A stretch of DNA of 64,000 nucleotides from Candidatus Omnitrophota bacterium (GTDB lineage: Bacteria > Omnitrophota > Gorgyraeia > B26-G9), in contig JACQZH010000021.1 in the NCBI GenBank assembly GCA_016213925.1, positions 6,295-70,294 on the forward strand, read 5' to 3'. The position numbers were made by a program, and so were the translations under genes. The notes beneath the pieces are model-generated. The model had not been told where the DNA came from and ran no database searches. It was given only the letters and a program-made list of their open reading frames with translations. Shown piece after piece: positions 17,748 through 45,791 of this stretch (the first letter of the stretch is position 1; every line of letters starts with the position of its first letter).

Positions 17748-18032
17748 CCCAGATTTTGCAACACGAAAAATCTGCCCGTAGGGGCGATAGTCTACCTGTC
17801 TGCCAACAGGCAGGAATCCGTGTAGGATTTAGACTTGCCAGCGGCCTTGCCGCTAGGCAGGCTATCGAGGTATCCCGAATTTCGCCTGTCTGCTGCCAGG
17901 CAGGCTTGCACCTTTTAATGTTGCGTTGCATTAGAGTAACTCGTTATAATGAATTAGGATAGAAATAAAACAGGTACTTATGTGCAAAATTTGGGATAAT
18001 TCTTGTTTTCTATCGCAATTTTTGGGATAATG
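17748..18032. repeat. Structured intergenic repeat, family A, long copy
   Basis: It shares GGGGCGATAGTCTACCT...CTATCGAGGTATCC(C)GAATTTCGC...TTGCACCTTTTAATGYTGCGTTGCATTAGAGYAACTCGTTATA...GTGCAAAATTYGGGATAA with 26746-26962. Two extra hairpin-forming internal segments are present. The ORFs called inside it are probably spurious. Confidence 0.6.
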
Positions 18033-18068
18033 ATAAAAAATATCAAATATCGAAAAAGAAGGGAAAAT

Positions 18069-26745: not shown

Positions 26746-26962
26746 TTGGGATAAACCAAAATTTTGGGATAAAATCTAGTCTCAAATAATCCCAAAATTT
26801 GCCCGATAGGGGCGATAGTCTACCTATCTGCTGACAGGCAGGCTATCGAGGTATCCGAATTTCGCTTGCACCTTTTAATGCTGCGTTGCATTAGAGCAAC
26901 TCGTTATATGAATAAGGATAGAAACAAAACAGATATTCATGTGCAAAATTCGGGATAACCTC
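26746..26962. repeat. Structured intergenic repeat, family A, short copy
   Basis: It has the same core as 17748-18032. It is flanked by a TTTGGGATAA / TTATCCCAAAA inverted pair at the left end and GTGCAAAATTCGGGATAAC at the right end. It sits between the convergent smc and GGDEF genes. Confidence 0.6.
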
Positions 26963-28183: not shown

Positions 28184-28312
28184 ATAATCCCAGATTTTGC
28201 CGGCCTATCGGCAAGCATCTTTTTATGCGAGATATTATTTTATAACTGTTTTTTTCGAACTAAGTTACCATAATTCTTGTTTTCTATTGCAATTTTTGGG
28301 ATAATAAACAAA
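28184..28312. repeat. Family A-related framework sequence without the core, containing the shared promoter module
   Basis: ATAATCCCAGATTTTGCC and ATTCTTGTTTTCTATTGCAATTTTTGGGATAAT match the flanks of copy 1 but lack the ~190-bp core. It lies in the divergent region between the GGDEF gene and the rubrerythrin-like gene. Confidence 0.45.
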
Positions 28313-37764: not shown

Positions 37765-38829
37765 ATGCTGAAGAATAAAAAGGGTGTTTTACTGGTTGCT
37801 GTATATCTGGTGGTTGGGGTGCTTCTTGGTATACTTGGAGTTTGTGTTTATAAAAATATTTATGAGGCAAAAGTAAACATTGGGTATAAGCATTATATGA
37901 TGGCGTTTTATTGCGCTGAAGCGGCATTGGATAAGGGAATTGCCAACCTTCCTTCAAGCACCAGCGGTCAAACAAATGTTAGCTTGAATGCTGTAGGAGG
38001 TACCCAACAGGGGCAGTATACTTATACAATATCTACGGTAGAAGCAGGAAAGCGCTGGCGGGTGGAAAGCTGGGGATATTCGCCCAGCCAGGCAGATGCC
38101 GTAGTTACCCAGCATCTTGAGGCTTATGTTTCAAAAAAGGACTTGCCGGACTCTTTCTGGGATAACGCGATTTATACAGCCGGTAATGTGAGAGTAAACG
38201 GCAGTGCGTATGATATTGATGGTGATATTATTTATGGAGGCTCGCTTTTACCTGCGGTTCTTGATCCGGCTAAATTTTCCGGAACAAGCACAAATGATGC
38301 CAGTATTTCGCCTTTGATCAAGCTTGATTTTGAGACAATGAGAACAACTGCTGCCAGCCAGATCAAGGCTGACGGAAGCGATAATGTGTATACGTTTATG
38401 GAAATAGCAGCAGGGAATCCGCCCTTTCCAACTAGCTTCTGGTTTGACCAGACTGACCCTGACCCGACAAAATGGGTGCCTAATGTTGTGTATGTGGAAA
38501 CAGACCTTGTGCTTAACGGCAATATCGGCACGATCGGGGGTTTTTTTCTTGTGGTCGGAGATGTTACGACAAACCCTTCATCAACATCTGAGACTGTAAT
38601 CAATGGGAGAGGACAGATCGACGGTTGTATTTACAGTACAGGGCAGTTTCGCGTAAACGGCGGCGGCGGTGCTGACTTGAATGTTCTAGGCGGGGTTTGG
38701 GCAGGGACTGACGGAGTGCGTATAAACGGAAGTGTTCACCTTGGATACAATGAGGATTATATGAACGCTATCCGTGATGTGATCCAGCCTGGTTCGACTG
38801 TGCAGGTGATTTCCTGGCGGAGATTATAA
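37765..38829 (+). CDS. PilX-like minor pseudopilin
   Basis: The N-terminus MLKNKKG|VLLVAVYLVVGVLLG is a hydrophobic helix lacking E+5. 354 aa. It is last in the cluster. Confidence 0.4.
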   Translation: MLKNKKGVLLVAVYLVVGVLLGILGVCVYKNIYEAKVNIGYKHYMMAFYCAEAALDKGIANLPSSTSGQTNVSLNAVGGTQQGQYTYTISTVEAGKRWRVESWGYSPSQADAVVTQHLEAYVSKKDLPDSFWDNAIYTAGNVRVNGSAYDIDGDIIYGGSLLPAVLDPAKFSGTSTNDASISPLIKLDFETMRTTAASQIKADGSDNVYTFMEIAAGNPPFPTSFWFDQTDPDPTKWVPNVVYVETDLVLNGNIGTIGGFFLVVGDVTTNPSSTSETVINGRGQIDGCIYSTGQFRVNGGGGADLNVLGGVWAGTDGVRINGSVHLGYNEDYMNAIRDVIQPGSTVQVISWRRL

Positions 38830-38967
38830 GATCAAACGTAATGGGACAGCTTTTAATCTCTTTGCTGAAAATCCCCGGGTTTTCTCCAGAAAAATTCTCT
38901 TAAAATTTCCAGGGCTAAGTTCTCTTAATCCTCGGGATTATCCGCGCGATTCTTAAAATACTAGTAA

Positions 38968-39202
38968 CAGTTCAGCGTTAGGAAATTTGTTCGATATGCG
39001 GTGCGAACGTAACCGGTTCACTCCGTTCGCTACGGCTGCTCGTCGCAATCGGATAAAATTTTTCCGACTGTCCCCCCATCCCCCACAGGGTGGGCTCAGG
39101 TAAGCACTTCTGGAAAAATTTCATCCTCATAAGCATGCTCCTGTGCGGCCTTATGCTCACTACGTGAACCGATTACGTTCCTTCTGCTAAGAGCTGAACT
39201 AT
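38968..39202. repeat. Palindromic intergenic repeat, family B, copy 1 (MITE-like)
   Basis: About 85-90% identical to 44718-44958. It has terminal inverted repeats CAGTTCAGCG...GCTGAACT. The internal arms are mutually complementary (GAACGTAACCGGTTCAC / GTGAACCGATTACGTTC and GGATAAAATTTTTCC / GGAAAAATTTCATCC). Confidence 0.6.
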
Positions 39203-39293
39203 TACAAATACTACATATCAATAAATGACATGAAACTTCCTGCAGTTTTTATCATCAAAATATAAAGGGCAGTTGAATAAAGAAAGGCACGGT

Positions 39294-44006: not shown

Positions 44007-44708
44007 ATGAAGAATATGCGGAAAGTTAAAAGCGGGATAAAGAGCTGGCCGGAAGATGAGCGGCCAAGAGAAAAACTGCTGAGGAACGGAGAGCATACAT
44101 TAAGCAACGCGGAACTTCTGGCAATTCTTATCCGTACCGGGATAAACGGGCAAAGCGCGGTAGATATATCCAGAAAGATCCTGTCAAAATTCAAGGCCTT
44201 TCGGCAGATGAGCCACACGGATATGCGAAGCTGGCGGGAATTCAAAGGCCTTGGACTGGCGAAAATAGCGCAGATTAAAGCGGCTCTTGAGATTGCCCGG
44301 CGCATGGGAGAAGAAACCTTGGATAAAAAAACAAAGATATCTTCAGCCAAAGAAGTGGTTTCCCTGCTTTTGCCTCGTATGAGGGACCTAAAAAAAGAGG
44401 TTTTTAAGATAATTTTTCTTGATAGCCAAAACAGGGTGATTGATATTACCGAGCAAGGCACAGGCACGGTTAATCAGGCCAGTTTTTATTCCAGGGAAAT
44501 TTTTCAAAAAGCCTTGGAATATTTTGCCGTTTCGATAATCTGCGTGCATAATCATCCTTCAGGCAATTGCCTGCCAAGCGAGCAGGATAAACTGTTTTCT
44601 CAAAGGCTATTTGACGCTGGCAAGCTTCTGCAGGTAGCTTTTTTAGATCATATAATTGTCAGCGAAGAAGGATATTTCAGTTTTGCCGAACATGGATTGA
44701 TTAAATAA
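44007..44708 (+). CDS. radC: RadC-like JAB/MPN domain protein (UPF0758)
   Basis: HhH N-terminus and HNHPSG JAMM motif, ending ...IVSEEG. Confidence 0.75.
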   Translation: MKNMRKVKSGIKSWPEDERPREKLLRNGEHTLSNAELLAILIRTGINGQSAVDISRKILSKFKAFRQMSHTDMRSWREFKGLGLAKIAQIKAALEIARRMGEETLDKKTKISSAKEVVSLLLPRMRDLKKEVFKIIFLDSQNRVIDITEQGTGTVNQASFYSREIFQKALEYFAVSIICVHNHPSGNCLPSEQDKLFSQRLFDAGKLLQVAFLDHIIVSEEGYFSFAEHGLIK

Positions 44709-44717
44709 TATGGTAAT

Positions 44718-44958
44718 AGTTCAGCGTTCAGAAGTTTGAGTTAATAATGATGCGGTACAGACTCAATCGTCGCTCTGCATTCGCAGACGGTGCTCGTCGC
44801 AATCGGATAAAATTTTCCCGACTGCCCCCAGCATCCCCCACAGGGCGGTAGTTCAGGTAAGCACTTCTGGGGAAATTTTATCCTCATAAGCGAGTTTCTG
44901 CGCGCCTTATGCTCACTACGTGAGCCGATCGAGTCTCTTCTGCTAAGAGCTGAACTGT
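44718..44958. repeat. Palindromic intergenic repeat, family B, copy 2
   Basis: See copy 1. It starts 10 bp after the radC stop. Confidence 0.6.
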
Positions 44959-45041
44959 TAAATAATATGCGATAGTTCATCTTATGTGAATGAAAGGTTC
45001 CAAACTCTGAACTGATACAATAAGATCGGGAGGGTAAATAG

Positions 45042-45791
45042 TTGAAAAAAGAGATTTTGATTTTTGAAAATATTGTGATGATGTCGGAAAGCATTATCAA
45101 TAGGTGGAAACAAATCGCGAAGGAGGCGATAACAAACAGGGGTTGTTTTAGTATCGTGCTTTCCGGAGGGAAAACTCCTGTGGATTTATATCAGAGGCTT
45201 GCTAAGTTAAATGGAGATGAAATACCCTGGGAAAAGACGCATGTGTTTTTTATCGATGAACGCTATGTCGGGCCTGATCATCCGCATAACAATATGGCAA
45301 TGCTTTCCGTTGAGCTTTTCGAAAAAAATATGATGCCCAAAGAAAATATCTATCCGATATTTGATCAAGGAATTACTTTGGAGAGAGCTGCAGACATTTA
45401 TGCGGGAAAGATACGGAATTTTTTTAATTTAAGAGAACTTGAATATCCGGTTTTTGACCTGATACTGCTTGGCTTGGGAGCTGACGGGCACACCGCGGCC
45501 TTATTTCCTAAAGATATGCCGAGTATTTTGAAAGAAAAACGCCTTGTGGCCAAAGTTGAAGTTCAAGACGCCAAAGAGCCTTGGATAACCATGACTTTAC
45601 CTGTTATTAACAGCGCTAGGAGTATTTTTGTTTTAGTAAGCGGCAGCCATAAAGCGGATATTTTTAAAAAAGTGATAGAAGAAAACGCTGATTTGCCTGC
45701 TGCCAAGATCATGCCGAAAAACGGAAAACTGATTTTTTGCGTGGATAAGCAGGCGGCATCGTCTTTGCCAGAGAAATATAACTCTCTTTAG
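45042..45791 (+). CDS. pgl: 6-phosphogluconolactonase
   Basis: LSGGKTP, FFIDERYV and LGLGADGHTAALFP motifs. TTG start after GGGAGGG. Confidence 0.65.
   Translation: MKKEILIFENIVMMSESIINRWKQIAKEAITNRGCFSIVLSGGKTPVDLYQRLAKLNGDEIPWEKTHVFFIDERYVGPDHPHNNMAMLSVELFEKNMMPKENIYPIFDQGITLERAADIYAGKIRNFFNLRELEYPVFDLILLGLGADGHTAALFPKDMPSILKEKRLVAKVEVQDAKEPWITMTLPVINSARSIFVLVSGSHKADIFKKVIEENADLPAAKIMPKNGKLIFCVDKQAASSLPEKYNSL

Follow-up and report, generated by a model that had tools for sequence, protein, structure and literature searches.

The two repeats of about 240 bp in the 64-kb window (the whole stretch of DNA analysed here) are very probably MITEs with ends of the IS66-family (ISBst12-group) type, mobilised by such a transposase encoded elsewhere. 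An earlier note on this DNA described a palindromic MITE-like repeat and proposed terminal inverted repeats and target-site duplications as a check. Both copies carry 13-bp inverted ends and perfect 8-bp duplications, which support that description. The features are listed in Table 1.

The following mechanism is proposed. A DDE transposase of the ISBst12 type, encoded elsewhere in the genome, would bind the 13-bp termini GTAAYAGTTCAGC, cut AT-rich intergenic DNA with an 8-bp stagger and insert the element there. Repair of the cut would then produce the 8-bp direct duplications. We infer both the identity and the presence of this transposase, as none is encoded in the window.

Table 1. Coordinates of the two MITE copies, their termini and target-site duplications, and the neighbouring mini-element (window positions).
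Feature	Coordinates	Strand	Remarks
MITE copy 1	38964..39205	+	242 bp; gap between unannotated ORF (37765-38829) and msrAB (start about 39294)
Left target-site duplication, copy 1	38956..38963	.	AAATACTA, 8/8 identical to 39206-39213
Left terminal inverted repeat, copy 1	38964..38976	+	GTAACAGTTCAGC, exact match
Right terminal inverted repeat, copy 1	39193..39205	-	reverse complement GTAATAGTTCAGC, exact match
Right target-site duplication, copy 1	39206..39213	.	AAATACTA
MITE copy 2	44713..44961	+	249 bp; between radC (stop codon 44706-44708) and Glucosamine_iso-family (NagB/Pgl-like) gene
Left target-site duplication, copy 2	44705..44712	.	ATAATATG, contains radC stop codon TAA
Left terminal inverted repeat, copy 2	44713..44725	+	GTAATAGTTCAGC, exact match
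Right terminal inverted repeat, copy 2	44949..44961	-	reverse complement TTAACAGTTCAGC, one mismatch (12/13)
Right target-site duplication, copy 2	44962..44969	.	ATAATATG
Degenerate 50-bp mini-element	44969..45018	.	ends GCGATAGTTCATC ... TCTGAACTGATAC; flanks AATAATAT / AATAAGAT (7/8)

Extent and setting of the two copies

The two copies are homologous over their whole length. According to the MAFFT alignment from end to end, the mean column identity is 86-89%, and according to blastn the identity is 79.6% over 250 nt. Stretches of 18-26 nt are conserved between the copies at an overall identity of about 80%. In the repeat search, the two copies make up the main long direct repeat of the full window (families D1, D4 and D7). 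An internal 18-mer is present in the two copies only, with 0.03 occurrences expected in the 64-kb window. Thus, the two homologous copies of ~240 bp reported by the earlier note are real, and every string quoted there is present. The limits given for the repeats were a few bases too narrow, the true boundaries being those in Table 1.

The neighbours of the copies are ordinary chromosomal genes, which encode an MsrA/MsrB fusion, a YHS-domain protein, an MFS transporter, RadC, a Glucosamine_iso-family (NagB/Pgl-like) protein and an ABC transporter. The distance from the radC stop codon to the start of copy 2 is 4 bp, and not 10 bp as had been reported. The left duplication of copy 2 includes the stop codon TAA, and radC is intact. 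To the right of copy 2, the mechanical ORF start of the Glucosamine_iso-family gene is located at 45042. The nearest RadC relatives are found in Candidatus Omnitrophota MAGs with 57-65% identity, and the synteny with the window is not conserved. According to these relatives, the lineage is Omnitrophota-like. The proteins of the window have no exact counterpart in the public protein collection. The presence of radC had been taken as a hint of mobile DNA. This is not supported, since radC is here a chromosomal gene among housekeeping genes and its presence is therefore uninformative on mobile DNA.

A second, unrelated repeat family was observed at 17766-18038, 26794-26958 and 28270-28312. It consists of blocks of 43-51 nt with 82-96% identity, located about 9-10 kb apart, and corresponds to the families D6, D8, D9 and D10 of the repeat search. 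These repeats are devoid of GTAAYAGTTCAGC termini, and presumably they are the 'family A' of the earlier note.

Termini, target-site duplications and a 50-bp relic

The left-to-right terminus pattern of the element is GTAAYAGTTCAGC ... GCTGAACTRTTAC. Copy 1 starts with GTAACAGTTCAGC and finishes with GCTGAACTATTAC, and copy 2 starts with GTAATAGTTCAGC and finishes with GCTGAACTGTTAA. The 13-bp terminus GTAAYAGTTCAGC occurs without mismatch at three sites in the 64 kb, all of which are element ends, and the fourth end has one mismatch. The first bases are GTAAC or GTAAT at three of the four ends and TTAAC at the remaining one. With 242 and 249 bp, both copies are of the size of a MITE (about 50-800 bp with terminal inverted repeats).

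The window was scanned using the terminus only. Each end had to match at 9/13 positions or more and both ends together at 20 or more, the ends had to be 30-400 bp apart, and the flanking octamers had to agree at 6/8 positions or more. Three objects were detected, namely copy 1, copy 2 and a mini-element of 50 bp, and no hits were obtained in 20 shuffles. The mini-element is located 7 bp beyond copy 2, and its ends match the terminus at 10/13 and 11/13 positions. It is an older, almost fully deleted relative, and copy 2 landed 7 bp from it. The 64 kb contains, accordingly, two full copies and one 50-bp relic. The target octamer of copy 2 is composed of 7 nt of the left duplication of the mini-element and the first base of the mini-element. 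The location of copy 2 beside the mini-element suggests that this site is a local hot spot of insertion, or that places adjoining an existing end are preferred.

Both copies have perfect duplications and near-perfect ends, yet they are about 20% apart internally. If the divergence had arisen after insertion (~10% per copy), both octamer pairs would have stayed perfect with a chance of about 3% (0.9^32) according to our own estimate. Because the duplications are perfect and the ends are intact despite the ~20% divergence, most of the divergence probably predates the insertions. The copies thus probably derive from two already-diverged subfamilies, rather than having decayed in place, and two such subfamilies imply further copies elsewhere in the genome.

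Coding capacity, RNA families and regulatory sites

Two minus-strand ORFs, 38978-39160 and 44741-45100, lie over the copies. Neither of them has a Pfam match at E ≤ 1, and a profile of the two peptides detected no homologue among 5.8 billion protein clusters. The differences between copy 1 and copy 2 are distributed over the codon positions 1, 2 and 3 of the overlying ORF as 13/13/12, which is the pattern of non-coding DNA. The two ORFs are spurious, as the earlier note had already judged, and the elements are non-coding. On the same three observations, coding potential was rejected as a function of the copies. A match to a known protein-coding region, named in that note as a result that would speak against a mobile element, was not obtained, and no protein family was matched.

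No Rfam family was detected at the gathering level in the whole window, and tRNAs, rRNAs and riboswitches were accordingly not found. With permissive thresholds, nothing credible appeared at E ≤ 10 for copy 1 or at E ≤ 1 for copy 2. Up to E = 10, copy 1 gave three matches (E 0.8-9.6) to unrelated eukaryotic families, located at or beyond its right end. The Rfam search, which had been suggested earlier as a further check, therefore leaves both copies without a matching family. Neither copy contains a sigma-70-like promoter or an intrinsic terminator. A promoter or terminator function was rejected, as no consensus site is present within either copy.

Hairpin and compensatory changes

Each copy can be folded into one long imperfect hairpin, and no shuffled sequence folded as well, as RNA or as DNA. 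The z values of RNA folding are -5.3 (plus strand) and -6.5 (minus strand) for copy 1, and -5.0 (plus) and -4.2 (minus) for copy 2. Those of DNA folding are -4.3 for copy 1 and -4.1 for copy 2. The reverse-complementary halves and the long hairpin described previously are thus recovered by the folding of both copies (RNA z -4.2 to -6.5).

In order to count the base pairs, the minimum-energy structure of copy 1 itself (81 pairs) was projected onto copy 2. In copy 2, 56 pairs are unchanged, 4 are preserved by a one-sided change, 6 are preserved by two-sided (compensatory) changes, 14 are broken and 1 is gapped. Five of the six compensatory pairs are located in a single helix, in which the alignment columns 47-63 pair with 209-225. 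Slid controls gave 0-1 compensatory pairs, against 6 in the true register. Of the single-sided transitions, four give G.T and three give A.C as read on the plus strand, and neither strand is therefore favoured. As a preference for one strand is not seen, we read the long hairpin as a DNA-level property of a near-palindromic element and not as the mark of an RNA gene. In our reading, the arms evolve in concert or under a DNA-level constraint and the copies represent two subfamilies, selection and ancestry being inseparable with two sequences.

Assignment to the ISBst12 group

The inverted repeats of IS66 start with GTAAGCG and are accompanied by 8-bp direct repeats (PMC11946415). The IS66 family is recognised by ends with initial GTAA together with an 8-bp duplication (PMC11946415). 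In ISDge4, a member of the single-ORF ISBst12 group, the ends are GTGACTACTCAGCA / GTAACTGCTCAGCA and the direct repeat is 8 bp long (PMC12898284). The ends and the duplication length of the window element match those of the ISBst12-group elements, as follows.

On the Geobacillus plasmid pHTA426, the single protein of an IS66-like element contains the domains DDE_Tnp_IS66 (E 1.9e-64), zf-IS66 and DUF6444. This element has the ends GTATCTATTCAGCCC / GTAACTATTCAGCCC and is flanked by the duplication GACGAGTT. Another element, 1613 bp long, codes for the protein that is named ISBst12 by UniRef and has the ends GTAACTATTCAGCC / GTAACTATTCACCC. Perfect 8-bp duplications were also observed for about a dozen further single-ORF IS66 elements of plasmid, viral-contig and metagenome origin, the ends of which are GTAACTATTCAGCC, GTAACTGTTCAGCC, GTAACTGCTCAGCC, GTAACTACTCAGG, GTTACTGCTCAGG or GTAAGCATTCAG. 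The window terminus GTAACAGTTCAGC agrees at 11/13 positions with the end GTAACTATTCAGC of the pHTA426 element and the ISBst12-named element, and at 11/13 with the end GTAACTGCTCAGC of ISDge4. The agreement is 12/13 with the single ends GTAACTGTTCAGC (locus L275) and GTAACAATTCAGC (locus L271).

The window terminus departs from the ISBst12-group consensus at position 6 only (A, not T). Position 6 is T in every autonomous element of which both ends were recovered, and A in the window element and the metagenome MITEs. None of the autonomous elements recovered carries exactly GTAAYAGTTCAGC on both sides, and the single ends that come closest to it are GTAACTGTTCAGCC (L275) and GTAACAATTCAGC (L271). 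Subterminal or internal homology to a parent was found neither in plasmids nor in the fetched insertion sequences nor in public collections. The putative assignment to the ISBst12 group rests on the terminus sequence and the duplication length, not on an identified parent.

The termini of the single-ORF IS66-family elements at the loci L248-L288 (Geobacillus, Bacillus, Clostridium, cyanobacteria, Streptomyces and metagenomes) are strikingly conserved as GT[A/T]AC-T-R-Y-TCAG. The transposases of these elements are only about 35-45% identical.

Search for the transposase and for internal relatives

According to tblastn and a motif scan, no IS66-family transposase gene is present in the 64-kb window or in the MITE-bearing metagenome loci. 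With an ISBst12-group transposase as the query, the tblastn search of the fetched loci and the window produced a single weak match (E 0.063) and none that was significant. The scan for the IS66 motif GRKNWLF gave one match in a 55-codon ORF of the metagenome locus L037, which was judged to be a chance match. The extra terminus matches in the MITE-bearing loci were considered as ends of an autonomous partner and rejected, as they are solo or shortened remnants beside ordinary genes. A scan of viral contigs with a 14-mer of the terminus gave mostly single chance matches and a few short MITEs. The blastn search of plasmids with a gut MITE gave nothing useful.

The internal sequence of the window family was found nowhere else in the collections searched. 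No match was obtained with copy 1 against plasmids (blastn), with a right-end 19-mer in the contigs of species-representative genomes, with an internal 18-mer in viral contigs or with an internal 22-mer in metagenomes. The earlier note would have given up the mobile-element reading if the sequences were unique to the two loci and had neither terminal inverted repeats nor target-site duplications. The internal sequence is indeed unique in the collections searched, but inverted repeats and duplications are both present, and with this evidence the uniqueness is irrelevant to that argument.

The same termini on other small elements

Metagenomes were scanned using the two termini only as anchors, 205-235 nt apart. 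The 100 elements obtained fall into about 28 families that are unrelated in their internal sequence, both to one another and to the window copies. A small number of singletons lie inside genes and look like matches by chance. For the 90 elements with two good ends, the flanking octamers are identical at 8/8 positions in 43, at 7/8 in 8 and at 6/8 in 11, and a shifted control never exceeded 6/8. Human-gut assemblies and environmental JGI samples are among the sources named in the records. These results indicate that the terminus with the 8-bp duplication defines a widespread non-autonomous class, to which the window family belongs as a lineage-specific member.

The largest metagenome family has 39 copies of about 255 bp, and its contig names include human-gut assemblies. 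Short derivatives of 75-140 bp were also observed, e.g. L099 5699-5775 and L188 2671-2808. In one family, L053 12115-12416 and L058 108-340 contain extra internal copies of the terminus 69-70 bp apart, with the right-end coordinates 12278/12347/12416 in L053 and 271/340 in L058. The extra termini look like tandem or nested partial duplications of the element end.

Alternative explanations

A pair of paralogous structured non-coding RNA genes, each forming a hairpin of ~240 nt with incidental flanking repeats, would agree with the strong folding that is predicted (z -4 to -6.5), with the compensatory changes at six pairs against 0-1 in the slid controls, with the orientation of both copies as that of the flanking genes, and with the conserved stretches of 18-26 nt amid about 80% identity. 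Such genes leave unexplained the perfect 8-bp duplications abutting the inverted termini at both copies, and the termini and the duplication length recur on about 28 unrelated internal sequences. The RNA-gene explanation was rejected on the basis of these perfect duplications, the lack of an Rfam match and of a sigma-70-like promoter or intrinsic terminator within the copies, and the lack of strand bias, as the two strands fold about equally and G.T and A.C are counted four and three times. Furthermore, 14 of the 81 predicted pairs of copy 1 are broken in copy 2. We regard the explanation as highly improbable. A palindromic intergenic repeat maintained by the host, i.e. a REP/BIME-like repeat or a cruciform regulatory site without present mobility, seems scarcely credible. 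The location between co-directional genes, the hairpin potential and the few visible copies are in its favour, but REP-type elements are much shorter and have neither inverted termini nor target duplications. The perfect duplications despite 20% divergence between the copies point to insertion events, and the termini are those of a known insertion-sequence group.

If the repeats are MITEs, they could also have been mobilised by another family with 8-bp duplications (e.g. ISL3, IS256, IS6 or IS1595), the resemblance to ISBst12 being coincidental. In line with this, no cognate transposase is present in the window or in the MITE-bearing loci, and the terminus has A at position 6, where all autonomous ISBst12-group elements recovered with two ends have T. 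The termini of the other families with 8-bp duplications (ISfinder) begin with GG or CAGG and are not known to resemble the window terminus. Against a coincidence, 11-12 of the 13 positions of the window terminus are shared with the ends of the ISBst12 group, among them the initial GTAA and the core TCAGC (PMC12898284). Mobilisation by another family is thus considered very unlikely, and the ISBst12-type transposase is the preferred agent.

Significance and comparison with known systems

The window family is an ordinary kind of element with conventional biology, and the understanding of how MITEs work is unchanged. For the annotation, two spurious ORF calls are removed and two odd GC-rich intergenic hairpins are explained. 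The elements indicate present or recent activity of an ISBst12-type (IS66-family) transposase in an Omnitrophota-like genome that is uncultured. Dozens of unrelated metagenome elements of ~240 bp share this 13-bp terminus and the 8-bp duplication, and therefore IS66-type MITEs may be common but under-described. The literature searched, of which the coverage was incomplete, yielded no account of MITEs derived from IS66/ISBst12 and no mention of the string GTAACAGTTCAGC. A further-reaching proposal combines two claims. The GTAAYAGTTCAGC(C)-terminated elements would form an undescribed IS66/ISBst12-derived MITE superfamily, distributed over many environments, among them the human gut, sediment metagenomes and the Omnitrophota-like genome, and the hairpin of the window family would in addition be under selection, as a single-stranded DNA transposition intermediate or as an exapted transcript structure affecting the flanking genes. 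This combined proposal is tentative, and we consider it rather unlikely.

Bacterial MITEs include Correia/NEMIS, RUP, ERIC/IRU, Nezha and MITEPsy. Like bacterial MITEs in general, the window element is small, non-coding and intergenic near gene ends, has inverted termini, a target duplication and a strong hairpin potential, and attracts spurious ORF calls. Its termini and the presumed transposase family are different from theirs. The metagenomic elements of about 230-260 bp with GTAAYAGTTCAGCC termini (L028-L127) share with it the 13-bp ends, the length and the 8-bp duplications, and some of them are also long palindromes, e.g. in L041, L052 and L092. Most of these elements have C at position 14 of the terminus, whereas the window element has G. 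The members of the ISBst12 group (ISBst12, ISDge4 and the pHTA426 element) likewise have ends that start with GTAAC and contain TTCAGC or CTCAGC, an 8-bp target duplication and insertions into AT-rich intergenic DNA. They are 1.4-1.9 kb long with a transposase gene, whereas the window element is about 245 bp long without one, and its arms are complementary over most of their length and not at the ends alone.
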